Shown here: positions 6,644-48,344 of the stretch, piece after piece
Layout of the letters: every line of letters begins with the position of its first letter
Numbering within the stretch: position 1 is the first letter of the stretch
From: an uncultured Chromatiales bacterium
GTDB taxonomy: Bacteria; Pseudomonadota; Gammaproteobacteria; CBFCYW01
Assembly: GCA_965602395.1 (NCBI GenBank)
Contig: CBFCYW010000001.1
Location: 2,846 to 66,845 of the forward strand
DNA length: 64,000 nucleotides
Reading direction: 5' to 3'
Translations under genes and position numbers: made by a program
The notes under the pieces: model-generated
Database searches by the model: none
Told to the model about the DNA's origin: nothing
Seen by the model: only the letters and a program-made list of their open reading frames with translations

Positions 6644-6937
6644 GAGAGCCTCCCGTGTTTTTCTTGTCGATTCTGGCGCGCCCGGCCGGTGCTTGCGGTG
6701 TCCGTAGCAGGCCGTCGCCAGAGCTGCAGTTTGCGCATCCGCCGTTGCTGCGCCGCGCGGCGCGGCCGCCACCGAGATTTAGAGGCCGGGGGGCAGACCG
6801 TGCGAAAAAATTGATCGGAGCCGATCTCGTGGCGATGATATCCGCGTGCCGCCGAGCGGCAATACCACTCACGGGATAAGGTTTTGCGCGGCCCTCGACA
6901 AGGGCTTTGCACAGGGCCGCACAAGGGAGACGGACAG

Positions 6938-24694: not shown

Positions 24695-24946
24695 CACCGG
24701 CGGCGATCGCGGGCGATTGCACAGCCCGGTGCTGGTGATCGGCAGGCTGTGATCTCTTCAGTCCCCCGCGCACTCGGGGGGCGTTTCACTTCCGCGGGTC
24801 TGTCTTTTTTGTAACCGTGAAACATATGCTTGCTGCGCCAAGGCAACCGTTTTGTCACCTATTTGACAAGGATGTAGCGATAGTCTGCTGGTACTGGAAG
24901 CGGCCAAAGACGGCCGCGGACGCAGATCGTCGGGGAGGCGACAGCC

Positions 24947-26187: not shown

Positions 26188-26844
26188 ATGAACATCGCCA
26201 CTGCGCAGCCTGTGCCGCTGTTGTTTGCCTTTGCCCTGATTCTCGGCGCGGCTGGCGCGCCACCGGCGCTGGCGGTCGACCAGGCGCAGGTGCGCGAAAA
26301 GTGGCACACGCCCTACGGCCTGTATTTGTCGGCGGCGGAGGCGCTGGCGATGAAGCGGCGCGATGGCGACGCGCTGGCCTTTGTCGACGTGCGCACCCGC
26401 GCCGAGCTGAAATACGTCGGCGCGCCGCAGCAGATCGACGTCAACCTGCCGCTGCGGTTTTTTCAGACCGATCGCTGGAGCCAGCGCAACGCCAGCTTCG
26501 CCACCGATCCGAACCGCCGCTTCGCCGCCGAGCTGCTCGCCTGGCTGGCCACTCGCGGCGGTGATCGCGACACGCCGATCATCCTCATGTGCCAGTCCGG
26601 CAGCCGCTCGCCGATCGCCGCCAAACTGCTGCACCGCGCCGGTTTCAGCACGGTGTACACCCTCTACGAGGGCTTTGAGGGGGTGAAGGCCAAATCCGGC
26701 GAGCGCGCCGGTCAGCGGGTGGTCAACGGCTGGAAGAACGCCGGCTTGCCGTGGTCCTACCGGCTGGCGCGGGAGAAGATGTACGCGCCGGATCAGTGGG
26801 TCGCGGCGGCCGACGCTTCGAGCAGCGGTACGGCCAGCGAGTAG
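26188..26844 (+). CDS. periplasmic rhodanese-domain sulfurtransferase
   Basis: Signal peptide ending ALAVDQ. Rhodanese active-site loop MCQSGSRS. The start at 26188 follows a GGGAG. Confidence 0.75.
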   Translation: MNIATAQPVPLLFAFALILGAAGAPPALAVDQAQVREKWHTPYGLYLSAAEALAMKRRDGDALAFVDVRTRAELKYVGAPQQIDVNLPLRFFQTDRWSQRNASFATDPNRRFAAELLAWLATRGGDRDTPIILMCQSGSRSPIAAKLLHRAGFSTVYTLYEGFEGVKAKSGERAGQRVVNGWKNAGLPWSYRLAREKMYAPDQWVAAADASSSGTASE

Positions 26845-27500
26845 AGCGCCAGCGCGATCACCGCCAGCCCGGCGGCGCGGCGCAGCCAGGTGTGCCGCGC
26901 CAGGCGTTGCAGGCCGCGCGCCGCGGCGCCCAGGGCGAGCAGGGTGGGCAGGGTGCCGAGGCCGAAGGCGAGCATCAGCAGCGCGCCGTCGAGCGCCGAG
27001 CCGGTGGTCAGCGCCCAGACCAGCACCGAGTAGACCATGCCGCAGGGCAGCCAGCCCCAGACCAGCCCCAGCGCCAGCGCCTGCGCCATCGAGCGCGGTG
27101 GCAGAAAGCGCCGGCCGAAGGGTTCCAGATGCCGCCACAGGTGGCTGCCGAGCCGCTCCAGCGGCGCCAGCAGTGGCGTGAAGCCGGTCAGATAAACGCC
27201 CAGCGCGATCAGAAACAGCGCCGCCAGCAGCGCGGCGACGTGTCGCGCGGTGTCCACTTCGATAAAGCTCAGCGCGCCGGCACCGAGGCCGCCGGCGATG
27301 GCGCCGGCGCTGGCGTAGCTGGCCAGTCGTCCGGCGTTGTAGGCGAGCAGATAGCGCAGCAGCGCGAGCGGCCGCTGGCGCACCGCGGCCGGCAGGCCCA
27401 TGGAGAGCGCGCCGGCGATGCCACCGCACATGCCCACGCAATGGCTGCCGCCGAGCAGGCCGATCAGCAGCGCGGAGATCAGCAGGCTGGCGTCGTTCAC
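26793..27500 (-). CDS. TauE/SafE-like membrane protein with HCxxMCGG motif (cco-cluster associated)
   Basis: N-terminus LLIGLLGGSHCVGMCGGIAGAL. Polytopic. It occupies the position seen next to ccoS/ccoH in Pseudomonas-type clusters. Confidence 0.7.
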   Translation of the reverse strand: MNDASLLISALLIGLLGGSHCVGMCGGIAGALSMGLPAAVRQRPLALLRYLLAYNAGRLASYASAGAIAGGLGAGALSFIEVDTARHVAALLAALFLIALGVYLTGFTPLLAPLERLGSHLWRHLEPFGRRFLPPRSMAQALALGLVWGWLPCGMVYSVLVWALTTGSALDGALLMLAFGLGTLPTLLALGAAARGLQRLARHTWLRRAAGLAVIALALYSLAVPLLEASAAATH

Positions 27501-27572
27501 GCGTGGCTACGGTTGGCTGTGGTGGGGCAGGCTTGTGCGCGGCGACGCGCCGCTGGCGCCGCTCCGCGCGGT

Positions 27573-28121
27573 TCAGTCCAGCGCAGGTTGCAGGCGCACG
27601 CTGCGCGAGTGCGGATAGTTCAGCTCGCCGGAGAGCCGCCACCTGGCGTCGGTCGGCTGCAACCGCAGATACCAGCGCGCCTTTTGCAGCGGCACCGCCA
27701 GCTCGGCGTTGTAGCCGCTGGCGTCGCGCTGCAGTTGCAGGCTGCGATCGCGATCGGCATGGGTGGGGTGCAGCAGCTGCAGATGCAGCTGGTCGGGCAT
27801 CTGCTCGCCGGTGGCCAGTAGTTGCAGAGCGCGGCCGTTGCCGTCGAAACGCAGCAGGGCGTCGAGGCCCAGAGCGGCGGCGCGCTGGCCGGCTTCGCGC
27901 TGCAGATTGATGGCCTTGCCCTGCTTGTAGTAGTCGCCGACCACCAGACTGTCGCGGTTGCTGACCGCGATGATCACGGTGATGATCCCGGCGATCACGG
28001 CGCTCATCGGCAGGCCGATCAGCACCCAGGGCCAGAACTGGCGGTACCAGGGCTGGCTGTCTTCGAGCTGCTGTGGCTTGCGCGGCGCGCTGGGTTTGTC
28101 GGCGAGGCTCATGCTGTTCAT
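27573..28121 (-). CDS. ccoH: FixH/CcoH family cbb3 oxidase assembly protein
   Basis: Motif PWYRQFWPWVLIGLPMSAVIAG...VGDYYKQGKAIN. Confidence 0.75.
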   Translation of the reverse strand: MNSMSLADKPSAPRKPQQLEDSQPWYRQFWPWVLIGLPMSAVIAGIITVIIAVSNRDSLVVGDYYKQGKAINLQREAGQRAAALGLDALLRFDGNGRALQLLATGEQMPDQLHLQLLHPTHADRDRSLQLQRDASGYNAELAVPLQKARWYLRLQPTDARWRLSGELNYPHSRSVRLQPALD

Positions 28122-28181
28122 CTCGTTACTCTGCGGTCTGTGGCGCTGCGCTGGCAGCGTTACTGTCGTCGACGGCCGGCA

Positions 28182-28220
28182 TCAGCGGCTGCTGTCAGCG
28201 GCTGCCGTCAGCGGCTGACG
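28182..28220. repeat. 3 x 13-bp tandem repeat TCAGCGGCTG(C/A)(T/C)G spanning the ccoG stop codon
   Basis: Read directly as tcagcggctgctg tcagcggctgccg tcagcggctgacg. The third unit carries the ccoG stop. Confidence 0.9.
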
Positions 28221-29641
28221 GGGCCGAGGAAGCGCGCGTTTTCGGTGCGGCTGATGTCTGAATCCAGCGCGTTGATGTGGAAGCGGATCTCGCTGCTCGG
28301 GGTCTTCAGAAAGGCCGGATCGATGCGCACGCTGACCACCTGATCGAAAACCTCGCCGGCGGGCAGGGTGATGCTCTCGGGGGCGACCAGCTCGGCCTGT
28401 TCGAGGCCGTCGATGGTGATCCGGTATTCGCGCGCGTGATCCTCCATGTTGACCAGTTTGAGCAGGTAGACGTTTTCGGTCAGTCCGCGGTCGGTGGTGC
28501 GGTACAGGGCGTTGCGGTCGCGGATGATGTCCAGCTCCAGCGGCACGCGCTGGGAGATGGCGAAGATCAGCCCGGCGCACAGCGCCAGCAGCAGGCCGGC
28601 GTAAATGATGGTGCGCGGCCTGAGGATGTGTGTGCCGGCACCGTCGAGGGCATTCTGGGTGGTGTATTTGATCAGCCCCTTGGGGTAGCCGACCTTTTCC
28701 ATCACCTCGTCGCAGACGTCGATGCAGGCGGCGCAGCCGATGCACTCGTACTGCAGCCCGTTGCGGATGTCGATGCCGGTCGGGCAGACCTGCACGCAGA
28801 GGGTGCAGTTGACGCAGTCGCCGAGCCCCAGCGATTTGGGATCGCTGCCGCGTTTGCGCGCACCGCGCGGCTCGCCGCGCGTTTCGTCGTAGGAGATGAT
28901 CAGCGTGTTGGAGTCGAACATCGCGCTCTGGAAGCGCGCGTAGGGGCACATGTACAGGCAAACCTGTTCGCGCATCCAGCCGGCGTTGCCGTAGGTGGCG
29001 AAGCCGTAGAAGACAATCCAGAACAGCTCCCAGGGGCCGAGCGAGAAGCTGATCAGCTTGTCCCAGAGTTCATCCAGCGGTGTGAAGTAGCCGACGAAGG
29101 TGAAGCCGGTGTACAGGGAAAAAGCAAGCCACACGGCGTGTTTAGTGATCTTGAGGCGCCATTTGCGCGCGCTCCACTGCCCCTTGTCGAGCTTCATCTG
29201 CTGGCTGCGGCTGCCTTCGATGTGGCGTTCGATCCACAGGAAGACCTCGGTCCATACCGTCTGCGGGCAGGCGTAGCCGCACCACAGGCGACCGGCCAGC
29301 GCGGTGAAAAAGAACAGCGACAGCGCGGCGATGATCAGCAGCACGGCGAGAAAGAAGAAATCCTGCGGCCAGAAGGTCAGGCCGAAGATGTGGAATTTGC
29401 GTTCGGGCAGATCCAGCAGCACTGCCTGGCGGCCGTCCCAGCGCAGCAACGGCAGGCCGTAAAACAGGCCGAGCAGTGCCAGCACGCCGAGCACGCGCAA
29501 GCGCGCGAAGATGCCGGTGACCGCGCGCGGATAGATTTTCTCCCGCTTGCGGTAGAGCTCGATCGGCTCGGCTGGCGGCTGGTTTTTGTCGGCGCTGTGC
29601 GCCGGGTGCTTGTCGGGCGACGGCTGGTTGCGCTCGCTCAT
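28208..29641 (-). CDS. ccoG: cytochrome c oxidase accessory protein CcoG (4Fe-4S ferredoxin-type)
   Basis: Motifs LYRKREKIYPRAV, CGYACPQ, CVNCTLCVQVCPTGIDIR and CIGCAACIDVC. Confidence 0.9.
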   Translation of the reverse strand: MSERNQPSPDKHPAHSADKNQPPAEPIELYRKREKIYPRAVTGIFARLRVLGVLALLGLFYGLPLLRWDGRQAVLLDLPERKFHIFGLTFWPQDFFFLAVLLIIAALSLFFFTALAGRLWCGYACPQTVWTEVFLWIERHIEGSRSQQMKLDKGQWSARKWRLKITKHAVWLAFSLYTGFTFVGYFTPLDELWDKLISFSLGPWELFWIVFYGFATYGNAGWMREQVCLYMCPYARFQSAMFDSNTLIISYDETRGEPRGARKRGSDPKSLGLGDCVNCTLCVQVCPTGIDIRNGLQYECIGCAACIDVCDEVMEKVGYPKGLIKYTTQNALDGAGTHILRPRTIIYAGLLLALCAGLIFAISQRVPLELDIIRDRNALYRTTDRGLTENVYLLKLVNMEDHAREYRITIDGLEQAELVAPESITLPAGEVFDQVVSVRIDPAFLKTPSSEIRFHINALDSDISRTENARFLGPVSR

Positions 29642-29916
29642 CGCGTCGATGGTCTCCGGTTGACGGTTTCACTGGGGTGCTGGAAGTACTGGGTCAGCGC
29701 GCTGGACAGGGTGGTCAGTAGCCAGAAACAGAAAAAGCCCGTGCTGTAGGCACCGAGTCGGGTTACTTCGGCGTCGCCGTGACCACTGGCGATGGCCAGC
29801 TCGATGGGATCAAAAAAGGTGAAAAACAGCGCGGTCGCCAGCCCGGCGGTGAGGAACGCGGGCCAGAGTACCGCGACGGTGTACTGGGTCTTGGTGATCG
29901 AACGGTTTGCTGCCAT
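29638..29916 (-). CDS. small two-TM membrane protein, unknown function, coupled to ccoG
   Basis: Two hydrophobic segments in 92 aa. ATGA overlap with the ccoG start. I recognise no family. Confidence 0.5.
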   Translation of the reverse strand: MAANRSITKTQYTVAVLWPAFLTAGLATALFFTFFDPIELAIASGHGDAEVTRLGAYSTGFFCFWLLTTLSSALTQYFQHPSETVNRRPSTR

Positions 29917-30057
29917 GGTGCTGGGGTTCCGGTTGCGGTGTGCCGCGAGGCATACGGGTTGCGCGTAGGGGGAGGGTGGCCCCGTTCTCGGGCGGCCTGT
30001 GCCCGACCGCTTACGGAATCCCCCCGGAGATTGCGCGGCAATTGTACGAACCGACTG

Positions 30058-30109
30058 CGGGCACGTCCCTCCCCCGCATGGTATGGGTCGCGGGGGCGGG
30101 GCGTGCCCG
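30058..30109 (-). other. GC-rich 20-bp stem-loop just downstream of ccoP
   Basis: CGGGCACGTCCCTCCCCCGC / GCGGGGGCGGGGCGTGCCCG pair 18/20 plus 2 G-U positions, with a 12-nt loop. There is no U-tract, so this is not a canonical terminator. Confidence 0.4.
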
Positions 30110-30126
30110 CAAGTGGTGGCTCCGGA

Positions 30127-31017
30127 CTAGTCTGCGGACAGGCTGTAAATGTAGGCCGACAGCAGGTGCACCTTGTCTTCGCCGAGGAAGTCGCGATGGC
30201 CCGGCATCTGGCCGTTGCGGCCATTGCGGATGGCGCGCGCGATCATCGTTGGCGAACCGCCGTACAGCCAGACGTTGTCGGTCAGGTTGGGTGCGCCGAG
30301 TGCCGGGTTGCCGCTGCCGTCGGGCATGTGGCAGGCGGCACAGACCGCGAAGCGGGCCTTGCCTGCCTCGGCCTTGGCGGCGTCCACGTCGCGGCCGGAG
30401 AGGCTCTCGACATAGGCGACCACTTCGGCGATGCCTTCCTCGCCGCCGAGCGCGGCGGCCATTGGTGGCATCACCCCCCGGCGGCCCTCGAGGATGGAGG
30501 TTTTGATCGCCTCCGGCGAGCCGCCGTACTGCCAGTCGTTATCCGCCAGGTTGGGGAAGCCGGGAGCGCCCTGGGCGCTGGAGCCGTGGCAGACCGCGCA
30601 GTAGTTGAGATACAGGCGACGGCCGACGGACAGTGCTTCCTCGTTTTTGGCCAGTTCCGGGATCGGCGTCTTGGCGTAGGCGGCGAAGATCGGGCCGTAC
30701 TCTTCCTCGGCGCTCTGCACTTCGGCTTCGTACTGGCCGGTCGAGGTCCAGCCGAACATGCCCTCGAACTTGCCAAGGCCCGGGAACAGCGCCAGGTAGA
30801 TCAGACCGAAGATGATGGTGATGTAGAACATCCACAGCCACCAGCGCGGCATCGGGTTGTTGTACTCCTCGAGGTCGCCATCCCAACTGTGACCGGTGAC
30901 CTCACCCTGGGCTGCTTCGCCGGCCCGTGGCTTGGCGGCCCAGTGGATCAGCCAGTAGCAGGCGAGAATGTTGCCGATGGTCAGGACGATGATCCAGACA
31001 CTCCAAAAATCGCTCAT
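30127..31017 (-). CDS. ccoP: cbb3-type cytochrome c oxidase subunit III (dihaem)
   Basis: N-terminus MSDFWSVWIIVLT and two haem motifs, CAVCHG and CAACHM. The start at 31017 overlaps the ccoQ stop; the longer ORF-track N-terminus is rejected. Confidence 0.9.
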   Translation of the reverse strand: MSDFWSVWIIVLTIGNILACYWLIHWAAKPRAGEAAQGEVTGHSWDGDLEEYNNPMPRWWLWMFYITIIFGLIYLALFPGLGKFEGMFGWTSTGQYEAEVQSAEEEYGPIFAAYAKTPIPELAKNEEALSVGRRLYLNYCAVCHGSSAQGAPGFPNLADNDWQYGGSPEAIKTSILEGRRGVMPPMAAALGGEEGIAEVVAYVESLSGRDVDAAKAEAGKARFAVCAACHMPDGSGNPALGAPNLTDNVWLYGGSPTMIARAIRNGRNGQMPGHRDFLGEDKVHLLSAYIYSLSAD

Positions 31018-31193
31018 TGCTCTGCCTCCGCTACAGATTTCTTGTGGATGCGTTCTTCTTCGGCGTCGAACAGTTGTCTGGCGGCGGCGTCGAAGCGGGA
31101 TTTCTGTCGGCTGCTCCAGGCCCAGGCCCAGACGCCGATGAAGGCGATGAAGGCGAGAACCGTGGCCAGCGAGTGCAGGTCTTTGATATCCAT
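31014..31193 (-). CDS. ccoQ: cbb3-type cytochrome oxidase subunit CcoQ (59 aa, below the ORF-track cutoff)
   Basis: My hand translation gives MDIKDLHSLATVLAFIAFIGVWAWAWSSRQKSRFDAAARQLFDAEEERIHKKSVAEAEQ*. One TM helix. It fills the ccoO-ccoP gap exactly and its stop overlaps the ccoP ATG. Confidence 0.7.
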   Translation of the reverse strand: MDIKDLHSLATVLAFIAFIGVWAWAWSSRQKSRFDAAARQLFDAEEERIHKKSVAEAEQ

Positions 31194-31198
31194 GGCGA

Positions 31199-31807
31199 TT
31201 ACCTCCGGGCCTTGATGACGGTGCCGAGGTTCTGCAGGTACGCAACCAGCGCGTCCATCTCGGTCTTGCCCTCGATGCTGGCGGCTGCGCCGGCGATGTC
31301 TTCGTCGCTATAGGGCACGCCGAGGGTGCGCATCACCTCCATCTTGGCTGCCACGCCGCCGCTATCGAGCTGGTTTTCGGCCAGCCAGGGGTAGCCGGGC
31401 ATGTTGGACTCGGGAACCACATCGCGCGGGTTGATCAGGTGCACGCGGTGCCAGTCGTCCGAGTAGCGGCCGCCGACGCGGGCCAGATCCGGCCCGGTGC
31501 GCTTGGAGCCCCACTGGAAGGGATGGTCGTAGACGAACTCGCCGGCGACCGAGTAGTGGCCGTAGCGTTCGGTTTCCGCGCGGAACGGGCGGATCATCTG
31601 CGAGTGGCAGTTGTAGCAGCCCTCGCGGATGTACACGTCGCGGCCCTCCAGCTGCAGTGCGGTGTAGGGTTCGAGACCCTCGACCGGCTCGGTGGTGCTC
31701 TTGTTGAAGAACAGCGGGACGATTTCGGCCAGCCCGCCGATGCTGATCACGATCACCACCAGCGCTGCCATCAGGCCGATATTCTTTTCGACAACTTCAT
31801 GACTCAT
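31199..31807 (-). CDS. ccoO: cbb3-type cytochrome c oxidase subunit II (monohaem)
   Basis: Motifs [11 protein letters not shown]..., [16 protein letters not shown] and [16 protein letters not shown]. Confidence 0.95.
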
Positions 31808-31826
31808 GATGTCTGGTTCTCCCTGC

Positions 31827-33263
31827 TCAAGCCGACTGGGGCGCGGTTTCGTTGGACTTGTCGGCGACCGGTTCGCCGGACTGCGCGCCGCCCACGGTGC
31901 GGGCCACGTTGTAGGCCATCACCAGCATGCCGACGAGGAACAGCAACCCGCCGAGGAAGCGCACCACGTAGAACGGGTAGGTGGCTTCGAGGGATTCGAT
32001 GAAGCTGTAGGTCAGCGTGCCGTCGTCGTTGACCGCGCGCCACATCAGGCCCTGCATGACGCCGGCGATCCACATCGAGGCGATGTACAGCACGATGCCG
32101 ATGGTCGAGGCCCAGAAGTGCACCTCGATCAGCTTGTTGCTGTACATGCCCTCGCGGCCGAACAGCTTCGGCAGCATCGCGTAGATGGCGCCGATGGAGA
32201 CCAGTGCCACCCAGCCGAGGGCGCCGGAGTGCACGTGGCCGACGGTCCAGTCGGTGTAGTGGGAGAGGGCGTTGACGGTCTTGATGGACATCATCGGCCC
32301 CTCGAAGGTGGACATGCCGTAGAAGGACAGCGAAACCACCAGGAAGCGCAGGATCGGATCGGTGCGCAGCTTATGCCAGGCGCCGGAGAGGGTCATGATG
32401 CCGTTGATCATGCCGCCCCAGGAGGGTGCCAGCAGGATCAGCGAGAAGATCATGCCCAGCGACTGGGTCCAGTCCGGCAGCGCGGTGTAGTGCAGATGGT
32501 GCGGACCGGCCCACATGTAGGTGGAGATCAGCGCCCAGAAGTGCACCACCGAGAGGCGGTAGGAGTAGATCGGCCGACCGGCCTGCTTGGGCACGTAGTA
32601 GTACATGATGCCGAGGAAGCCCGCGGTCAGGAAGAAGCCCACCGCGTTGTGGGCGTACCACCACTGCACCATGGCGTCGATGGCACCGGGGTAGACCGAG
32701 TAGGACTGCCACAGGCTCACCGGCAGCGCCGCACTGTTGACCAGATGCAGCACTGCGACGGTCAGGATGAATGCGCCGAAGAACCAGTTGGCCACGTAGA
32801 TGTGCGGCGTCTTGCGCTTGAGGATGGTGCCGAAGAAGACCACCGCGTAGGACACCCAGACCAGCGTGATCAGGATATCGATGGGCCATTCCAGCTCGGC
32901 GTATTCCTTCGAGGTGGTGATGCCCAGCGGCAGGGTGATCGCCGCGGCCAGAATCACCAGCTGCCAACCCCAGAAAGTGAACGCGACCAGGCCGTCCGAG
33001 AACAGCCGCACCTGGCAGGTGCGTTGCACGATGTAGTACGACGTGGCGAACAACGCACAGCCGCCGAAGGCGAAGATCACCGCATTGGTGTGCAGCGGAC
33101 GCAGCCGGCTGTAGGTCAGCCAGGGAATGTCAAAGTTGAGTTGCGGCCAGGCCAGCTGGGCGGCGATCAGCACGCCGACGGCCATGCCGACGATGCCCCA
33201 GACCACCGTCATGATGGTGAACTGGCGCACGACCTTGTAGTTGTAACTTGTTTGATTATCCAT
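31827..33263 (-). CDS. ccoN: cbb3-type cytochrome c oxidase subunit I
   Basis: 478-aa polytopic haem-copper oxidase ([42 protein letters not shown]). Confidence 0.95.
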
Positions 33264-33450
33264 CGGTCTCGATCACTCCCATCGAGCTAGGGGTTTATGG
33301 CGAGGCTTGCGCTGTGGGCACGGATGCGGTTCGCGAGGAGCCGGATTATGGCAGATTTATTAGTACCTGCTAATATTCTGTTTGTGCACAACGGCACGCC
33401 GCACCGCTTCTGAGCGTGGCCAAGGTTGCCGGAGGCATGCCAAGGCCGTT

Positions 33451-33464
33451 TTGATTCAGGTCAA
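33451..33464. promoter_or_regulatory. FNR/Anr box TTGAT-TCAG-GTCAA upstream of ccoN (and of fnr)
   Basis: Matches the TTGAT-N4-(A/G)TCAA consensus. It sits in the ccoN/fnr divergent region, about 190 nt from the ccoN start. Confidence 0.65.
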
Positions 33465-33707
33465 TAAGGCTAACGGAACGTTGTGCGGCGCACAATGAAT
33501 GCTTGCCGGGGACACGGCCAGTGCGGCCCGGTGAGCGTCGGAAAAAGGCGCCGATCATTCGTCGGTTGCACTGCACTCAGCACGCACGCCGATGCCGCGA
33601 GCAGGTATAATCGGTGGTCGGATTCGCTGGTCGAATGTGCCGGTGATCATCACCACGGCTTGGCCCAAGGTGCAACTCAGCGTGCAGCTCAAGGTTTAGG
33701 GGGCTCA

Positions 33708-34448
33708 ATGAAGATACGCCCGGTCATCGACGTCCACAGCGTCAAGGTCAGCTGCGGCTCGTGCAGCCTGTCGGAGCTATGCCTGCCGCGCGGACTGAAT
33801 GACGAGGAGCTGGAAAGGCTCGATAACGCGGTTCAGCACAAGCAGAAGCTGGAGCGCGGCGACCATCTGTTCCGCGCCGGCGAGCCACTGCGCGCAGTTT
33901 ATGCGGTGCGTTCGGGCTCGCTGAAGACCACCCTGTCCACCAGCGATGGCGCCGAGCAGGTCACCGGGTTCCACCTGGCTGGCGAGCTGGTCGGGCTCGA
34001 TGGCTTCGGCAGTGGCGAGCACGGTTGCAATGCCCAGGCGCTGGAGAGCGCCACCGTCTGCGAGCTGCCCTATCAGGATTTCGAGGAACTGTGCGGCCAA
34101 CTGAGCGGCCTGCGCCGCCAGGTGATGCATCTGGTGGGCAAGGAGATCACCCAGGATCATCGCATGCTGCTGGCGCTGGGCAAGATGGCCGCCGAAGAGC
34201 GCTTGGCCACCTTTCTGCTGAGCCTCTCGCAGCGCTACCGCGAGCGCGGCTTTTCAGCCACTGAATTCAACCTCAGCATGCCGCGCCACGACCTCGCCAA
34301 CTACCTGGGCCTGGCGGTGGAGACGGTCAGCCGGCTGTTCTCGCGGCTGCAGGATGAGGGCCTGGTGGAAGTGCAGCGGCGCAGCATCCACATCCGCGAT
34401 CTGGATGGCCTGCGCCGCCTCGCCCACGACGAATGCTCGCCGGACTGA
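33708..34448 (+). CDS. fnr: FNR/Anr family oxygen-sensing transcription regulator
   Basis: N-terminal Cys cluster SCGSCSLSELC plus a mid-protein Cys. The HTH has the ETVSR recognition motif. The start at 33708 is MKIRPV. Confidence 0.9.
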   Translation: MKIRPVIDVHSVKVSCGSCSLSELCLPRGLNDEELERLDNAVQHKQKLERGDHLFRAGEPLRAVYAVRSGSLKTTLSTSDGAEQVTGFHLAGELVGLDGFGSGEHGCNAQALESATVCELPYQDFEELCGQLSGLRRQVMHLVGKEITQDHRMLLALGKMAAEERLATFLLSLSQRYRERGFSATEFNLSMPRHDLANYLGLAVETVSRLFSRLQDEGLVEVQRRSIHIRDLDGLRRLAHDECSPD

Positions 34449-34484
34449 AGCCGCCGCCGCGCCCCCGTTGAATGGGCTCTCGGC

Positions 34485-35894
34485 TCAGATAGTGCGCGAA
34501 AAGCGCGGCTGTTCGCTCGCCTGGCGCAGGCTGACATCGAAGGGCATGCAGATGTTGCGCAGTAATAAGCGCCCTCGGGGGTTGATTTCGATGCGCTCGG
34601 CAGTGAGCGACAGCAAGCCGTCGCGAGCCATCGCTGCGAGCATCCCCAATTCCTGCTCGAAGTAATCCGCAAAGCTGAACACACCGATCACCGACGTGGC
34701 GTGGCGCTCAAATTCGGCGATGTCCACCGCGTAGTCGCAACACAGCTGCTGGATCACCTCGCGGCGCAGCTGGTCGTCCGCATTGAGCTGCACGCCGCGT
34801 GTGACCGGCAGCTCGCCGGCGTCGAGGCGCTGATAGTAGTCGTCCAGGGTCTTTTCGTGTTGGCAGTAACTCAGGCCAACCTTGCTGATCGCGCTCACGC
34901 CCATGCCGATCAGATCGCAATCGGCGTGGGTCGAATAACCCTGGAAGTTGCGGTACAGATTGCCGGCGCTCTGCGCCGCCACCAGTTCGTCGTCCGGCTT
35001 GGCGAAATGATCCATGCCGATGTACACATAGCCCGCGCCGATCAGCTTCTCGACGCTCATCTGCAGAATCGCCAGCTTCTCTTCCGGCGTCGGCAGTTGC
35101 TCGCTGCAGATCTGTCGCTGCGGCTTGAACAGGTGCGGCAGGTGGGCGTAGTTGAAGATCGACAGGCGATCCGGGGAGAGCTCTTCGATCACCCGATCCA
35201 GCGTTCGCGCAAAGCTGTCGCGCGATTGCAGTGGCAGGCCGTAGATCAGATCGATGTTCACTGAATGGGCGCCGAATTCGCGGCAGGCGTCGAGCACTGC
35301 GCGGTTCTGCGCCAGCGGCTGCACGCGGTTGACCGCGCGCTGCACCGCTGGGTCGAGATCCTGCACGCCGAGGCTGAAGCGGTTGAAGCCCAGTTCGCGC
35401 AGATGGCGGACGCGCTCGCGATCCACCGAGCGCGGGTCGATCTCGACCGAGTAATCGCCGCGATCGTCGTCGCGCAATTTGAAGTGCCGCTGCGTCGCCT
35501 CCATCAGCGTCGCGCTCTGCTCGGCGCTCAGGTAGGTCGGCGTGCCACCGCCCCAGTGCAGCTGCTCCACCGTGCGATCGCGGTCGTAGAGCGCCGCCTG
35601 CATGGCCATCTCGCGCAGCAGATACGTCATGTACTGCTCGGCGCGACGGCGATTGTTGGTGACCACTTTGTTGCACGCACAGTAGAAACAGACCGTGTCG
35701 CAGAAGGGCACGTGCACGTACAGGGATAGCGGCCGCGGGATGGGATCGTCGTTGCTCAGCCGCGCCAACTGCTGGTAGCGCTCAGTGTTGAAGGCCGGGG
35801 TGAAAGACGCGGCGGTCGGGTAGGATGTGTAGCGCGGCCCGCTCTGGTCGTAACGGCGGATCAGCTCGGCGTCGAATTGGACAGATCCCTGCAT
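34485..35894 (-). CDS. hemN: oxygen-independent coproporphyrinogen III oxidase (radical SAM)
   Basis: Motifs RYTSYPTA, the CxxxCxxC cluster (HVPFCDTVCFYCAC) and GGGTPTYL. Confidence 0.9.
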   Translation of the reverse strand: MQGSVQFDAELIRRYDQSGPRYTSYPTAASFTPAFNTERYQQLARLSNDDPIPRPLSLYVHVPFCDTVCFYCACNKVVTNNRRRAEQYMTYLLREMAMQAALYDRDRTVEQLHWGGGTPTYLSAEQSATLMEATQRHFKLRDDDRGDYSVEIDPRSVDRERVRHLRELGFNRFSLGVQDLDPAVQRAVNRVQPLAQNRAVLDACREFGAHSVNIDLIYGLPLQSRDSFARTLDRVIEELSPDRLSIFNYAHLPHLFKPQRQICSEQLPTPEEKLAILQMSVEKLIGAGYVYIGMDHFAKPDDELVAAQSAGNLYRNFQGYSTHADCDLIGMGVSAISKVGLSYCQHEKTLDDYYQRLDAGELPVTRGVQLNADDQLRREVIQQLCCDYAVDIAEFERHATSVIGVFSFADYFEQELGMLAAMARDGLLSLTAERIEINPRGRLLLRNICMPFDVSLRQASEQPRFSRTI

Positions 35895-35958
35895 CGGCGG
35901 ATTCCGTGATCGTGGCATGAGTGGCAGCGAACTCTAGTTGGCGCTTGGCGGTTTAACC

Positions 35959-35972
35959 CTGACGCAAGTCAA
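35959..35972. promoter_or_regulatory. degenerate FNR/Anr box CTGAC-GCAA-GTCAA
   Basis: One mismatch in the left half-site. It is centred about 70 nt upstream of the hemN start. Confidence 0.45.
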
Positions 35973-35995
35973 CTGCCACTGTGGCACATTGTCGC

Positions 35996-36009
35996 TTGAC
36001 GCATATCAA
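35996..36009. promoter_or_regulatory. FNR/Anr box TTGAC-GCAT-ATCAA in the hemN/ccoI divergent region
   Basis: Near-consensus palindrome, 37 bp centre-to-centre from the other box. Confidence 0.65.
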
Positions 36010-36039
36010 CACCAAAAACCAGACAGACTGCACACTGCC

Positions 36040-38571
36040 GTGCCCGATTTGCAGCAGAGACCCGCCGTGACCGCAGCCCCTCCCTCGCTTGCTCGCTCGA
36101 CCATCGACGCGCCCGGCGGCGACGCCTGCGCGCTCGATACCGGCTGCTACCACTGCGGCCTGCCGCTGCCCGCCGGCGGACAATTCTCGACGCGCATTCT
36201 CGGCGCCGAGCGGCCGATGTGCTGCGCCGGCTGCGAGGCGGTGGCGGCGGCCATCGTCGCCGCCGGCCAGGAGGATTTCTACCGCCACCGCACCGATCTC
36301 GCCGCTGGCGCCGCCGAACTGGTGCCGGATTTCCTGCGCCAGGCCGAGGTCTACGACAACCCCGGCATGCAGCGCAGCTTCGTCAGCGATGCCGGCGACG
36401 GCCGCCGCGAGGCCTCGCTGCTGCTCGAAGGCATCACCTGCGCCGCCTGCGCCTGGCTGATCGAGCGCCACCTCGGCCAGCTGCCCGGCGTGGTTTCGGT
36501 GAACGTCAACTACAGCAGCCACCGCGCGCGCGTCATCTGGCAGCCGCAGGCGATCCGCCTCTCCGCAATCCTCGCCGCGATCCACGCCATCGGCTACCGC
36601 GCGCAGCCCTACGACGCCAACCGCAGCCGCGCACTGCTCGACGCCGAGCGGCGCCGCTCGCTGATCCGCATCGGCGTCGCCGGGGTGTTCGGCATGCAGG
36701 TGATGATGCTCGCCGCCGGCCTCTATCTCGGCGACTGGAGCGGCATGGAGGATGGTTACCGTGCGCTGTTCAACTGGATCAGTCTCGGCCTCACCCTGCC
36801 GATCATCGGTTACAGCGCGCAGCCCTTCTTTCGCGCCGCAGCGCGCGACCTGCGCAGCCGCCAGGTGGGCATGGACGTCCCCGTCAGCCTCGGCATCGGC
36901 GGCGCCTTCGCCGCTTCGCTGTGGGCCACCGCGAGCGGCCAGGGCACGGTCTACTACGACTCGGTGGCGATGTTCGTGCTGTTTCTGCTCACCGCGCGCC
37001 ACTTCGAGCTGGCCGCGCGGCGCCGCGCCGGCGAGGCCGCCGACCGCCTGGTGCAGCTGCTGCCGGCCACCGCCACGCGCATCGACGACGATGGCGGCGA
37101 GCAGCTGGTGCCGGTCACCGAATTGCAGGTCGGCGAGCGCCTGCGGGTGCGCCCCGGCGAGCCGATCCCCGCCGACGGCGAAGTGCTGGAGGGTCGCTCC
37201 AGTGTCGATGAGGCACTGCTCAGCGGCGAATCGCTGCCGGTCAGCCGCGGCCCCGGCGATACCGTGGTCGGCGGCTCGCTGAATGTGGAGAGCCCGTTGC
37301 TGGTGGCGGTGCGCAGCGTCGGCGAGGACAGCGTGGTGTCGCAGATGCTGCGCCTGCTGGATCGCGCCCAGGCGGAGAAGCCGGCGATCACGCGCATCGC
37401 CAACCGCGTCGCCGGACACTTCGTGACCGCCGTGCTGTTGCTGGCGCTCGGCGTCGGCGGCTACTGGTATTTCGTCGCCGGCGCCGCCGACTGGCTGCCG
37501 ATCGTGGTCTCGGTGCTGGTGGTGACCTGCCCCTGCGCGCTGTCGCTGGCGACGCCCACGGCGATCACCGCGGCCAGCGGTGCGCTGACCGCTGAGGGCT
37601 TGCTGATCACCCGCGGCGCGGCGCTGGAAACGCTGGCGCGGGTCGACCACGTGTGCTTCGACAAGACCGGCACGCTGACCGACGGCAGGCTCGCCGTGCA
37701 GCGCACCGTGCCACTGGCCGACTGCGACGCGGAGCATGCGCTGGCACTGGCCGCGGCGCTGGAGGCGCACTCCGAACACCCCATCGCCCGCGCGCTGTGC
37801 GCCGCCGCTGGCGAGGCGCGCGGCGAGTTCACCGCCGGCGAGGTCGACAACACCCCCGGCAGCGGCCTCAGCGGCAGCATCGACGGCCGCCGCTACCACC
37901 TCGGCAACGCCGAATTCATCGCCGCCCGGGGCATTGCCGCGCCCGCGGCGGCAGGGCTCGATGAGCTGCGCGCCGAGGGCGCGACGCTGGTGCTGCTGGC
38001 CGACGGGCAGCGCGCGCTGGCGGCCTTTCTGCTCGCCGACCAACTGCGCCCCGGTGGCGCCGAACTGGTCGCCGCACTGCACCGCAGCGGCTGTCGCGTC
38101 AGCCTGCTCAGCGGCGATCACGCCGCCGCCGCGCAGCGCGTCGCCACCGCGGTCGGCATCGACGAGGTGCACGCCGGCCTCGGCCCGGCGGACAAGCTGG
38201 CGCGGCTGCGCGAGCTGCAGGCCGGCGGCGCGGTGGTGGCGATGGTCGGCGACGGGGTCAACGACGCCGCGGTGCTCGCCGGGGCCGACGTCTCCGTGGC
38301 CATGGGCAGCGGCGCCGATATCGCCGCCGCCAGCGCTGATCTGCTGCTGACCACCGAGCATCTGGATGCACTCGCCAGCGGTTTTGCCAGCGCGCGGCGC
38401 ACGCTGTGGATCGTGCGCCAGAACATCGCCTGGGCGATCGGTTACAACCTGCTGGCGCTGCCCGCCGCCGCGGCCGGGCTGGTGGCGCCGTGGATGGCCG
38501 CGATCGGCATGTCGCTGAGTTCGCTGCTGGTGGTGGCCAACGCCTCGCGGCTGCGCCGCACGGGAGCCTGA
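36040..38571 (+). CDS. ccoI: copper-translocating P1B-type ATPase for cbb3 oxidase maturation
   Basis: Motifs CYHCGLPLP, CCAGCEAV and the HMA-like GITCAACAW. P-type ATPase motifs CPC, DKTGTLT and GDGVNDA. There is no ATG near the 5' end; candidate in-frame starts are GTG 36040, TTG 36049 and GTG 36067. Confidence 0.85.
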   Translation: MPDLQQRPAVTAAPPSLARSTIDAPGGDACALDTGCYHCGLPLPAGGQFSTRILGAERPMCCAGCEAVAAAIVAAGQEDFYRHRTDLAAGAAELVPDFLRQAEVYDNPGMQRSFVSDAGDGRREASLLLEGITCAACAWLIERHLGQLPGVVSVNVNYSSHRARVIWQPQAIRLSAILAAIHAIGYRAQPYDANRSRALLDAERRRSLIRIGVAGVFGMQVMMLAAGLYLGDWSGMEDGYRALFNWISLGLTLPIIGYSAQPFFRAAARDLRSRQVGMDVPVSLGIGGAFAASLWATASGQGTVYYDSVAMFVLFLLTARHFELAARRRAGEAADRLVQLLPATATRIDDDGGEQLVPVTELQVGERLRVRPGEPIPADGEVLEGRSSVDEALLSGESLPVSRGPGDTVVGGSLNVESPLLVAVRSVGEDSVVSQMLRLLDRAQAEKPAITRIANRVAGHFVTAVLLLALGVGGYWYFVAGAADWLPIVVSVLVVTCPCALSLATPTAITAASGALTAEGLLITRGAALETLARVDHVCFDKTGTLTDGRLAVQRTVPLADCDAEHALALAAALEAHSEHPIARALCAAAGEARGEFTAGEVDNTPGSGLSGSIDGRRYHLGNAEFIAARGIAAPAAAGLDELRAEGATLVLLADGQRALAAFLLADQLRPGGAELVAALHRSGCRVSLLSGDHAAAAQRVATAVGIDEVHAGLGPADKLARLRELQAGGAVVAMVGDGVNDAAVLAGADVSVAMGSGADIAAASADLLLTTEHLDALASGFASARRTLWIVRQNIAWAIGYNLLALPAAAAGLVAPWMAAIGMSLSSLLVVANASRLRRTGA

Positions 38572-38572
38572 T

Positions 38573-38815
38573 ATGGAAATTCTCTACCTGCTGGTACCGA
38601 TTGCCGCGCTGCTGGCGGTGCTCATCGCGGTGGCGTTCGTCTGGGCCATCCGCTCCGGCCAGTTCGAGGATCTCGAAGGCCCGGCGCACCGCATTCTGAT
38701 GGACGACGACGACGAGTTGATCCCCCGGGATGCGCGCTCGCAGCCGGCCGACAGCGGCGAATCGCCGGCGCAGTCGAAGCCCGCCCGGCAGCACAGCGAA
38801 CCCCGGCAGAAATGA
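38573..38815 (+). CDS. ccoS: cbb3 oxidase maturation protein CcoS
   Basis: The segment MEILYLLVPIAALLAVLIAVAFVWAIRSGQFEDLEGPAHRIL is typical of CcoS/FixS. It begins 2 nt after the ccoI stop. Confidence 0.85.
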   Translation: MEILYLLVPIAALLAVLIAVAFVWAIRSGQFEDLEGPAHRILMDDDDELIPRDARSQPADSGESPAQSKPARQHSEPRQK

Positions 38816-45410: not shown

Positions 45411-45690
45411 CGTGGCTTCCTTGTTCGTGGTTTGCGCCTAGCGTAGCGAGGCGTCGGGCTGCGGATTGTGACGCGTTGGTTAAACGCAAGCCCTTGATCG
45501 GCATGAAGCAGTGAGTTGTTGAACAGTTCCGTAAGGTGATTTTTCCGGCCTCGCATGAACTAATCCCCACCGACCCAGTCACAGGGGCCATCTGGGGGTT
45601 GTCGCTCTGCGCCGACGCTTCGGATGAACGCAAACGCCAAGACCGAGCGCCCGACTACGGGCTATCCAAAACTATCTGGAGATGACTAAT

Positions 45691-45945
45691 ATGAACACTG
45701 CCAAGAAGACTTCTGGTTTCGCCCTCGCCGCCGCCGCTGCCGCGATGCTCGCTACCGCACCGATGGGTGCCGTGCACGCCGGTGCCGACAAGGGCAAGTG
45801 TGTCGGCGCCAACAGCTGTAAGGGTCACAGCGACTGTGCCACTGCGACCACCTCCTGCAAGGGCCAGAACGCCTGCAAGGGCCAGGGCTTCATGAAGATG
45901 ACCAAGGCCGAGTGCGAAGAAGCCGAAGGCACCTTCGAGGGCTGA
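45691..45945 (+). CDS. exported six-Cys RiPP precursor, bufferin/HvfA-like (Sec signal, SPase I type)
   Basis: GGAG lies 9 nt upstream of the ATG at 45691. The signal [30 protein letters not shown] precedes GAD. Core: [50 protein letters not shown]. It lies directly upstream of the DUF692/DUF2063 genes. Confidence 0.75.
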   Translation: MNTAKKTSGFALAAAAAAMLATAPMGAVHAGADKGKCVGANSCKGHSDCATATTSCKGQNACKGQGFMKMTKAECEEAEGTFEG

Positions 45946-45960
45946 TTTCGATCCCCAGCC

Positions 45961-46006
45961 ACGCCCGGATCGCAAACCGTGCAGCGGTTGCGTATCCGGG
46001 CGTTTT
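45961..46006 (+). terminator. intrinsic terminator-like hairpin between the two precursor genes (likely attenuator)
   Basis: ACGCCCGGAT pairs with ATCCGGGCGT (10 bp). An 8-bp inner stem with two bulges and a 5-nt loop follows, then TTTT. Confidence 0.5.
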
Positions 46007-46051
46007 CATACCCATAAATCCGCGCTGTGACGCGGGGGAGACCAAGAGAAA

Positions 46052-46321
46052 ATGAGTACTGTAAGCAAAACCACTGGATTTGCCCTCGCCGCAGCCGCGG
46101 CCACAATGCTGGCAGCCTGTTCGTCCACTGGCGGCGGCCTCTACGGCAGCAGCGCCAGCGCCGAAACCGGCAAGTGCATCGGCGGCAACAGCTGCAAGGG
46201 GCACAGCGATTGCGCCACCGCAACCACCTCTTGCAAAGGCCAGAACGCTTGCAAGGGCCAGGGCTTCCTGAGCATGACCAAGAGCGAATGTGACGCCGCC
46301 GGCGGTACCTTCGAAAGCTGA
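46052..46321 (+). CDS. exported six-Cys RiPP precursor paralogue with lipobox (predicted lipoprotein form)
   Basis: GGGGGAG RBS. The signal [23 protein letters not shown] has a canonical L-A-A-C lipobox, followed by the S/G-rich linker [16 protein letters not shown]. Core: [50 protein letters not shown]. Confidence 0.75.
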
Positions 46322-46382
46322 TCGACTCCACTCGTCGCGCCGCGTGCGCGGTGCGGCGTTGGCCGCAGCGAGGCGACCGCGC

Positions 46383-47240
46383 ATGACGCAATCCGATCAT
46401 TCCGAACGCCCCTTTCTGGGGTTCGGTCTCGGCCTGCGGCCGGACCACTACCCGACGATCGTCGAGCAGCGCCCGGCTGTGGACTGGTTCGAGATCCTCT
46501 CCGAGAACTACATGATCGAGGGTGGCAAACCGCTGCACTTTCTCGATCACATCCGCCGCGATTACCCGCTGGCCATGCACGGCGTTTCCATGTCGCTGGG
46601 CAGTACCGACCCGCTGAATATGAGCTATCTGCGCGATTTGCGCGCACTGATCGACCGCGTGCAGCCGGTCTGGGTCTCCGACCACCTGTGCTGGACCGGT
46701 GTCGATGCCCACAATCTGCACGACCTGCTGCCGTTGCCCTACACCGAGGAGGCCATCGAGCACGTCGTCGAGCGGGTCTGTCGCGTGCAGGATTTTCTCG
46801 GCCGGCGGATCCTGCTGGAGAATCTATCCAGCTACGTCACTTACACCGAATCGGCGATGAGCGAATGGGAGTTTCTCAGCGCCATTGTCGAACGGGCCGA
46901 CTGCCTGATTCTGCTCGATGTGAACAACATCTTCGTCTCCGCCGTGAACCACGCTTTCGATCCGCTCGACTACCTGCGCGGCGTGCCCGCAGAGCGCGTC
47001 TGGCAGTTTCACGTCGCCGGCCACAGCCGCAACGCCAGCGGGCGGATTCTGGTCGACACCCACGACCAACCGGTGTGCGATGAGGTCTGGGCGCTGTACG
47101 CCGAAGCCGTGCGCCAGTTCGGACCGGTTTCGGCGATGATCGAGCGCGACGGCAATATTCCGCCCTTCGACGAACTGTTCGCGGAGCTGCAACAGGCGCG
47201 GCGCATCGCCGAGCCGATCCTCGCCGAGCACGCCGCGTGA
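46383..47240 (+). CDS. DUF692 / MNIO (multinuclear non-haem iron oxidase, MbnB/BufB-like) RiPP maturase
   Basis: Motifs [61 protein letters not shown] and QFHVAGHS are the UPF0276/DUF692 TIM-barrel signature. Confidence 0.9.
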
Positions 47241-48025
47241 GCGGTCTGCGCGGATTGCAAAAGGGCTTTGCCGCAGCGCTGCTGCGCGGCGAGCCGGCGA
47301 TTGCCGAACGCATCGTCTCGGATGACGCCGGCAGCGCCGGCGAGCGTCTGGAGATCTACGCCCACGCTTACGTGGCACGCCTTCAGGAAGCGCTGGAGGT
47401 GGATTTTCCGGGCTTGCTGGCGCTGCTCGGCGAAGATTTCTATCGCGCCACCCGCGAGTACATCCGCGACAACCCCTCGCACTACGCCTCGGTGCGCTGG
47501 TACGGCAACCGTTTTGCCGACTGGCTGGCGGCCGCCGAACCCTGGTGTCAGCGACCGGAACTGATCGAGCTGGCGCGCTTTGAGTGGGCGCTGGCAGCGG
47601 TGTTCGATGCCGCCGATGAGCAGCTCGCCACACTGGAGCAGCTGATGGCGGTTCCACCCGAGCACTGGGGCGGCATGCGACTGCACCCGGTAGCGGCGAT
47701 GCAACGGCTCGATCTGCACTACAATGTGGCGCCGCTGCGCGAGGCTGCACGCAACGGCGAGCCGTTGCCGGAGCTGTCTGGCGATGATCAGCCGGTAGCC
47801 TGGCTGGTGTGGCGCAAGGGGCTGGACCCGCACTGGCGCTCGCTGGAGGTCGATGAGGCATGGGCGCTGGATCGCTGTGCCGAGGGCGCCGATTTCGCCG
47901 CGATCTGCGCGGGGCTGTGCGAATGGGTCGACGAGGCCAATGCACCATTGCGCGCAGTCGGATTTCTACAGCAGTGGCTGGGTGATGAGCTGCTGAGCCG
48001 GATCGAGCCGGCTACCCCATCGTGA
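47237..48025 (+). CDS. DUF2063 family protein (BufC/HvfC-like partner of the MNIO enzyme)
   Basis: The GTG start overlaps the DUF692 stop (GTGA). Motifs [42 protein letters not shown] and ELARFEWAL. Confidence 0.8.
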
Positions 48026-48086
48026 GCATTCTGCCGCCGCGCGGGTGGCGCTAGAATGCGCCCCCCTGAAATTTGCCGAGGCCGCG

Positions 48087-48344
48087 ATGATGTCCGATAA
48101 ACCCGCCAACGATGAGCCGCGACAGCCTGCCGGCGAGCCGCAGCAGGCCGAGCCGGGCCTCGGTTTCTGGGGTGTCACCAAAAGCATTCTATGGGCCGGC
48201 CTCGGGGTGCAGAGCGAGGCCAATCGCCAGCGTGATTTCAAACAGGGAAAGATGGTCCACTTCGTCATCGGTGGGCTGATTGGCACGCTGCTTTTCATGC
48301 TCGTCGTGTGGCTGTGGGTGCAGTCGATGCTCGCCGGTACCTGA
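48087..48344 (+). CDS. DUF2970-like small membrane protein
   Basis: The segment FWGVTKSILWAGLGVQSEANRQRDFKQGKMVHFVIGGLIGTLLFML matches my memory of DUF2970. The ATG at 48087 or 48090 follows a GAGG. Confidence 0.6.
   Translation: MMSDKPANDEPRQPAGEPQQAEPGLGFWGVTKSILWAGLGVQSEANRQRDFKQGKMVHFVIGGLIGTLLFMLVVWLWVQSMLAGT

Follow-up and report, generated by a model that had tools for sequence, protein, structure and literature searches.

A predicted Buf2-type bufferin operon with soluble and lipoprotein precursors in an uncultured Chromatiales bacterium

Introduction

Bufferins, also called captophorins, are now recognised as the largest class of peptides ribosomally synthesised and modified after translation (RiPPs) that are made with multinuclear non-haem iron oxidases (MNIOs), and were described between 2024 and 2026. 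Loci that pair an MNIO with a PME1 partner, in which DUF2063 is joined to a RiPP recognition element (RRE), number more than 24,000 and occur in about half of the Pseudomonadota reference genomes (captophorin class; PMC13097082). Here we describe a locus that very probably belongs to this class, at positions 45691 to 48344 of a 64-kb stretch of DNA from an uncultured Chromatiales bacterium (contig CBFCYW010000001.1). The whole stretch is called the window below.

In Caulobacter vibrioides, bufferin 2 (Buf2) carries a mass shift of -18 Da, the four central cysteines accounting for -4 Da each and CysI and CysVI being joined by a disulfide; it is induced by copper and protects against copper (PMC11626156). 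5-thiooxazoles have been confirmed across MNIO-PME1 clusters (PMC13097082). In C. vibrioides the type Buf2 cluster consists of bufABC and has no DoxX; even Buf1 can do without DoxX (PMC11626156). Lipoproteins make up about 16% of Buf2 precursors, and tandem precursor genes have already been reported, while Buf2 clusters are found without linked sigma/anti-sigma genes and bufferin clusters without further conserved genes (PMC12452194). As for their control, a bufferin operon of Caulobacter depends on SigF (PMC11626156). Other extracytoplasmic function (ECF) sigma factors govern MNIO-PME1 operons elsewhere, namely RpoE7 in S. meliloti (TGTAACA-N16-CGAAT) and RpoE2 in H. influenzae.

Results

Four consecutive genes on the forward strand make up the core of the locus: bufA2a (45691..45945) and bufA2b (46052..46321), which encode precursors of 84 and 89 amino acids, bufB (46383..47240), for an MNIO (DUF692) of 285 residues, and bufC (47237..48025), for a DUF2063/RRE-type partner (PME1) of 262 residues. 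The GTG start of bufC overlaps the bufB stop as GTGA, and this 4-nt overlap is kept in two related loci, L082 and L084 (such handles are ours). We consider it very probable that bufA2a-bufA2b-bufB-bufC is a Buf2-type bufferin operon (captophorin, Cys-Lys group). Every feature by which Buf2 membership can be tested was found in it, and those that define HvfA/oxazolin, Buf1 and methanobactin clusters were not. An earlier reading of this DNA, made from its letters alone (the sequence-only reading), had described an MNIO-DUF2063 RiPP cluster with two tandem exported six-cysteine precursors. Its open reading frames are indeed present at the coordinates given above and match the family models. The profile searches that it named, as run, assigned the MNIO to PF05114 and to the BufB model, the partner to PF09836 and the precursors to the BufA2 model. 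Of the compound label 'bufferin/HvfA' that it had used, the bufferin half stands, since the BufB model is passed, and the HvfA half falls, since the HvfB cut-off is not reached and the EGKCG motif is absent from both window precursors. A second bufferin-like gene or a second MNIO was found nowhere in the 64-kb window.

The two precursors exceed the 60-bit cut-off of NF050166, the BufA2 equivalog model ('BufA2 family periplasmic bufferin-type metallophore'), with 87.9 bits for BufA2a and 82.7 bits for BufA2b. Both contain the core C-x5-C-x5-C-x6-C-x5-C-x12-C, with CKG at CysII, CysIV and CysV. When 60 homologues were aligned, the six cysteines, the CysII-Lys-Gly triplet and the glycines after CysIV and CysV were all invariant, and the lysine after CysV was conserved in at least 90%. 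At E <= 1e-5 there are 3512 homologous precursors, one of which bears the NCBI name 'BufA2 family periplasmic bufferin-type metallophore'. Neither window precursor matched PF10048 (DUF2282) at E <= 0.01, a precomputed match rated 'weak' on an orthologue being the only one, and a PDB sequence search with the precursor returned nothing useful.

Signal peptides and the lipobox were judged by a rule-based reading of the sequence. BufA2a has a Sec/signal peptidase I-type signal peptide with a lysine-rich n-region, an alanine-rich h-region and a predicted cleavage site between AVHA and GADKGKC. BufA2b carries K6, an h-region and the lipobox M-L-A-A-C23 with serine at +2, in agreement with the PROSITE lipoprotein rule. 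Between its predicted lipid-anchor cysteine and the six-cysteine core runs a flexible linker about 17 residues long, and linker residues 23-36 have a predicted local distance difference test score (pLDDT) below 50 in an AlphaFold2 (AF2) model. GGAG stands 11 nt before the bufA2a ATG at 45691; an alternative ATG at 45682 has no in-frame counterpart in the orthologue. The source gene call for bufA2b is a 71-residue form from Met19 (P0006), which would remove the n- and h-regions of the signal peptide (46052-46105). However, the L082 orthologue has kept the first 22 residues as well as the lipobox and the linker, the latter two being identical, which supports the 89-residue lipoprotein form as the real one. 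In comparison with the L082 orthologues, the ratio of non-synonymous to synonymous substitution rates (dN/dS) is 0.12 for bufA2a, bufA2b and bufC, and 0.10 for bufB. Both precursor paralogues are functional genes under purifying selection.

BufB reaches 398.6 bits with NF050167 (MNIO_BufB, 'MNIO family bufferin maturase'; cut-off 310) and matches Pfam PF05114 with E = 8e-114. It stays below the cut-offs for HvfB (NF003818, 283.1 bits versus 360) and MbnB (TIGR04159, 83.4 bits versus 325), as well as those of the ApyH and ChrH families. Among solved MNIO structures, 3BWW is the nearest to it (E = 5.5e-49). At the ligand positions aligned with MbnB (7TCR), BufB has H66, H101, E146, D179, N182, H210, D225, H227 and E254, nine positions that correspond to the iron ligands of MbnB, and D256 aligns with the proposed catalytic base (the catalytic Asp of FonB). 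The glycine that follows D256 is common to 13 of the 80 relatives surveyed below. It is the variant of the L002-L013 clade, where some precursors have Cys-Ala, not Cys-Lys, at CysIV and CysV.

BufC matches PF09836 (DUF2063) over residues 7-97 with E = 5.5e-19, and a PDB sequence search with it gave no useful match. Its AF2 model, built with 69 homologues, has a pLDDT of 94 and a predicted template modelling score (pTM) of 0.88. In Foldseek the best match is TglI, the partner of the MNIO TglH (8HI7_A, E = 1e-6, TM 0.61), and the C-terminal beta-sheet/helix domain has its matches among RRE proteins, namely TbiB1, lasso B1 and PqqD. By its modelled fold, BufC is a protein of the PME1 type, with a DUF2063 N-terminal domain and a C-terminal RRE-like domain.

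Our survey took in the 80 loci of GTDB species representatives whose BufB is closest to that of the window; the best BufB match among them comes from a Thiogranum metagenome-assembled genome (72%). The A-B-C architecture, with a detectable BufA2 gene, was present in 73 of them. Two separate precursor genes occur in 11 loci and a fused 12-Cys protein, often a lipoprotein, in 11. Among related loci, lipoprotein and soluble precursors are paired in L009, L014 and L069, two soluble ones in L019 and in a Bradyrhizobium group, and two lipoproteins in L170, while the close relative L084, whose BufB is 78% identical, has just one precursor, a soluble one. The sequence-only reading had singled out both the duplication into a soluble and a lipoprotein form and the lack of DoxX. 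Both forms are present and no DoxX lies nearby, but neither trait is distinctive: every combination of precursors exists in relatives and such sets have already been reported, and the founding Caulobacter buf2ABC is without DoxX too.

The pair could nevertheless be a selected architecture, in which a diffusing BufA2a and a tethered BufA2b have been sub-functionalised for different compartments or clients. Both forms have been kept under purifying selection since before the window and L082 split, with N-termini that are distinct and conserved, and lipoprotein-soluble pairs recur in the three loci named above. Against this, soluble-soluble, lipoprotein-lipoprotein and fused 12-Cys forms in other relatives show that no pairing is favoured, and L084 does with a soluble precursor only. 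The cores of BufA2a and BufA2b are 94% identical, so any difference would lie in location only. We regard sub-functionalisation as plausible, yet somewhat less probable than its opposite. Paralogue cores are closer within a genome (81-97%) than across genomes, which suggests independent duplications or homogenisation. The core substitutions are shared by the paralogues of each genome and are lineage-specific: H versus L after the first CKG, TT versus TS, and NA versus NS. In L082 (5601-6229) the paralogue cores have 94% nucleotide identity and 85% at third positions, which suggests gene conversion there; in the window (45691-46321) the values are 88% and 70%, and the signal appears weaker and ambiguous.

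Within the 280 nt that precede bufA2a, at 45556-45583 on the forward strand and about 108 nt before the start codon, lies the motif TGAACTA-N16-TCACA, its sole match in the window. Its -35 and -10 elements are kept in L082 and L084 (TCACA, TCAGA), whereas the spacer and flanks have diverged. We generalised the motif to the known sigmaE/AlgU consensus shape, [TG]GAACNN-N15-17-TCNNA, and scanned 300 nt of sequence upstream of each first precursor. It was found in 10 of 70 independent BufB loci versus 1.6 +/- 1.3 in shuffles, a count that overstates independence, many of the ten loci being related to one another. In these ten loci, which belong to a gammaproteobacterial clade (L002, L004, L005, L007, L008, L010, L011, L013, L015 and L023), the motif always stands 87-101 nt before the start codon of the first precursor, with the consensus TGAACTTT-N16-TCTAA/TCAAA and unrelated spacers. 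Upstream of the precursor genes of relatives, a less strict ECF pattern, GAAC-N17-19-CGT[ACT], showed no enrichment (1 locus versus 2.8 expected). We hypothesize that transcription of the buf genes probably starts at this putative sigmaE/AlgU-type ECF promoter. No SigF-type motif was seen in the 300 nt upstream of bufA2a, although TGTAACA-N16-CGAAT itself was not scanned for. The window motif would be of the RpoE/AlgU type, unlike the known SigF/RpoE7-type ECF motif.

A Pfam scan of the roughly 55 GC3-called genes of the 64 kb revealed no MerR/CueR, CopRS/CusRS, sigma-70/ECF, NrsF or DoxX. The claim that no metal-sensing regulator is encoded nearby is thus correct for the whole window, and it describes a typical situation, Buf2 clusters being without linked sigma/anti-sigma genes.

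This regulatory context is also where a role other than copper has to be considered. The products might be made as predicted and serve against HOCl and other oxidants, gold, mercury, another thiophilic metal or envelope stress. The motif upstream of the operon is like an envelope-stress (sigmaE/AlgU) promoter and unlike a copper-sensor operator, and no copper regulator was found in the 64 kb. Moreover, related MNIO-PME1 operons are induced by HOCl via an ECF sigma factor in H. influenzae, others respond to gold and oxidative stress, and MerC-Buf2 fusions exist (PMC12452194). However, the sole characterised Buf2 is copper-induced and copper-protective (PMC11626156). All characterised 5-thiooxazole peptides bind copper. 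Copper is itself an envelope stressor that switches on sigmaE-type responses. On these grounds we think a non-copper role unlikely and retain copper buffering as the expected function.

A terminator-like hairpin followed by a U-run lies between the two precursor genes (45961..46006, forward strand). For the region 45946-46051 the computed folding energy is -45.7 kcal/mol (z = -3.5), and TTTT follows the hairpin. A simple terminator scan missed it because of its long loop, and folding recovered it. L082 keeps the outer stem CCCGGAT/ATCCGGG and the T-run but has a different inner loop. In L084 a GC-rich inverted repeat with a U-rich tail can be seen by eye directly after the single precursor, although the computed fold is without it and not significant (z = -0.7). 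The bufA2a hairpin is probably a partial terminator or attenuator, or else a transcript-stabilising element, and it may raise the precursor-to-enzyme ratio. This position agrees with an arrangement common in RiPP operons, by which precursor transcript comes to exceed enzyme transcript. After the main hairpin, at 46020-46035, comes another, small and conserved, CCGCGCTGTGACGCGG.

Downstream of bufC, on the same strand, a gene at 48090..48344 encodes a small membrane protein of 84 residues that matches PF11174 (DUF2970) with E = 3.5e-18, and hfq, hflX, hflK and hflC follow it in this order. The sequence-only reading had seen the DUF2970 protein as the occupant of a downstream slot. Taken further, it would be a true fourth component replacing DoxX, with a part in export, anchoring or copper hand-off, and the locus would represent a new bufABC-DUF2970 subtype. 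The gene is indeed co-directional, 61 nt past bufC, with no terminator-like site in the gap by the simple terminator scan. It also stays beside bufC in L084-L086, although these loci have other genes beyond it (DUF488 and ThiS, not hfq), and in Bordetella a DUF2970 gene lies inside the operon of the aa3 cytochrome oxidase, a copper enzyme. However, DUF2970 adjoins bufC only in the lineage of the window (L081-L086 and L089). Identity to the window gene is 79% in L081-L083 and L089, and 67-79%, depending on the alignment, in L084-L086. When +/-7 kb around each of the 80 closest BufB loci was searched with tblastn and with a custom hidden Markov model, no DUF2970 was found. A metagenome scan with the DUF2970 alignment gave 78 further loci at 35-57% identity, none with bufA, bufB or bufC within 4 kb and 45 with DUF2970 directly after the 3' end of metH. 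The dN/dS of DUF2970 against L082 is 0.31, above the 0.10-0.12 of the buf genes, and the published bufferin survey describes no further conserved genes in the clusters (PMC12452194). The slot interpretation does not survive these comparisons, and a fourth component seems to us very improbable. DUF2970 and hfq would be unrelated neighbours, DUF2970 lying probably outside the functional cluster. Since the 61-nt gap has no terminator-like site, DUF2970 may still be co-transcribed by read-through from bufC.

Related loci have no conserved fourth gene downstream of bufC either, their neighbours being lineage-specific or convergent. Neither DoxX nor DUF2970 was detected by a Pfam scan of 52 co-directional open reading frames downstream of bufC in these loci, where bufC is followed by AraC/cupin, GcvP, CBS-PALP, creatininase or a second DUF2282 cluster. 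Such second, Buf1-type (DUF2282) MNIO/DUF2063 clusters lie a few kb from the Buf2 cluster in L003 (9516-10968), L006 (3294-4506) and L025 (3583-5096). In the DUF2970 subfamily nearest to the window gene, a place directly downstream of metH (methionine synthase) is the usual one in marine metagenome contigs, as in L087 and in 45 of L090-L167; we know of no earlier description of this linkage. metH was not found in the 64-kb window.

Elsewhere in the window, a complete cbb3 oxidase region (26793-38815) stands 7-19 kb upstream of the buf genes. It includes ccoN (31827-33263), ccoO and ccoP, with ccoG, ccoH and a DsbD_2-like gene on the minus strand, and also a gene for an FNR/Crp-type regulator (33483-34448), hemN, the copper-exporting P1B-ATPase gene ccoI (35938-38571) and ccoS. 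This is a copper-related context, and five unrelated genes separate it from the buf genes. A SorAB-like sulfite dehydrogenase pair (molybdopterin oxidoreductase and c-type cytochrome) at 4666-6772 fits a sulfur-oxidising gammaproteobacterium. At 16056-20815 a CHASE2-GGDEF-EAL protein is encoded beside a FecR-domain protein of 599 residues (19016-20815), with no sigma factor nearby, and at 22245-25909 three consecutive genes of unknown function encode DUF6502, DUF5666 (three repeats) and DUF4382 proteins.

Discussion

By homology to the characterised Buf2 of C. vibrioides, we propose the following mechanism for the window operon. In the cytoplasm, a BufB-BufC heterocomplex would bind each precursor via the RRE-like domain of BufC. 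BufB, with its multinuclear iron centre and O2, would then convert CysII-CysV into 5-thiooxazoles by a four-electron oxidation of -4 Da per cysteine. Both products would be exported by the Sec system, after which CysI and CysVI are expected to form a disulfide. BufA2a would be cut by signal peptidase I and freed into the periplasm. BufA2b would be lipidated on Cys23, cut by signal peptidase II and remain tethered to a membrane by its linker of about 17 residues; by the sorting rule of E. coli, serine at +2 suggests the outer membrane as its destination. The mature proteins would chelate Cu(I)/Cu(II) and thus buffer the periplasm against copper excess.

Some points weigh against this picture. 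The mechanism is transferred from C. vibrioides, the locus being known here from its sequence. BufB reads ERDG, with Gly257 (47148-47150), where most MNIOs of the Cys-Lys group carry ERDD, whose Asp has been proposed to contact the substrate lysine (PMC13097082); recognition of the substrate may be slightly different in this enzyme. BufC scores 36 bits on the HvfC model, far under the cut-off of 142, and matched no BufC-specific model. The AF2 model of BufA2b is of low confidence (mean pLDDT 61). Finally, the promoter assignment rests on conservation of the motif, and the cognate sigma factor would be encoded outside the window.

It is tempting to extend the promoter argument to a clade of Gammaproteobacteria to which this organism belongs. 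Buf2 operons there would be controlled by an RpoE/AlgU envelope-stress ECF promoter (TGAACTT-N16-TCTAA-like), with no SigF/NrsF or copper sensor. Bufferin-2 would belong to the general envelope-stress regulon, and copper buffering would be divided between the retained paralogues, the soluble one acting in the periplasmic lumen and the lipoprotein at a membrane surface. We offer this combined scheme tentatively and think it rather doubtful as a whole.

The locus adds one instance to a well-catalogued class and leaves the general understanding unchanged. Its value is that of a clean annotation, in which bufA2-bufA2-bufB-bufC can be named with confidence. Two things are mildly new, a promoter motif of the sigmaE type and the naturally occurring pair of soluble and lipoprotein paralogues. 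The bufferin papers cited here do not explain how Buf2 clusters without linked regulators are controlled, and a conserved sigmaE/AlgU-like promoter would be a directly testable answer. In the same way, soluble and lipoprotein pairs with near-identical cores are well suited to asking whether localisation matters in periplasmic copper buffering.

Among known systems, methanobactin (MbnA/MbnB/MbnC) is comparable in that an MNIO oxidises peptide cysteines into a copper ligand, and the iron-ligand residues align. It differs in its partner, MbnC and not a DUF2063 protein, in its oxazolone-thioamide chemistry and in its leader-peptide precursor, which is secreted and serves as a chalkophore in copper uptake. 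Bufferin 1 (DUF2282, buf1ABCD; the gig cluster of Cupriavidus) has the same enzyme pair and chemistry and a small folded periplasmic copper-binding protein, but its four-Cys DUF2282 precursor, DoxX (BufD) and linked SigF/NrsF are missing in the window. The oxazolin system HvfA-HvfB-HvfC of Haemophilus influenzae and fontiphorin/gonophorin (EGKCG, Lys-Cys group) are sister MNIO-PME1 systems whose precursors bear signal peptides; they have 5-thiooxazole chemistry and bind copper, and 3BWW, the nearest solved MNIO, is of this oxazolin/Lys-Cys type. However, their precursors are made of EGKCG repeats and not of a compact six-Cys domain, and their clusters usually include DoxX.

The captophorins of the Cys-Lys group (Gadgil et al. 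2026, PMC13097082) combine an MNIO, a PME1 partner (DUF2063+RRE) and a Cys-rich Cys-Lys precursor, as the window locus does; there is no difference of substance, the window enzyme belonging to the ERDG minority. Within this group, the counterpart is Bufferin 2 of C. vibrioides (buf2ABC, CCNA_02999-03001; Leprevost et al. 2024, PMC11626156; PMC12452194), whose family is also named BUF_6/12Cys. The window differs from it in having two precursor genes in place of one, the second encoding a lipoprotein, in its gammaproteobacterial host, in a promoter motif that is sigmaE/AlgU-like and not SigF-type, and in a Gly, not an Asp, after the catalytic Asp of BufB. In summary, both systems share a Sec-exported six-Cys precursor, a BufB-type MNIO and a DUF2063/RRE partner in a three-gene core with neither DoxX nor a linked sigma/anti-sigma pair, and the window operon is expected to yield the same kind of product, a periplasmic copper-binding protein with four 5-thiooxazoles and one disulfide.

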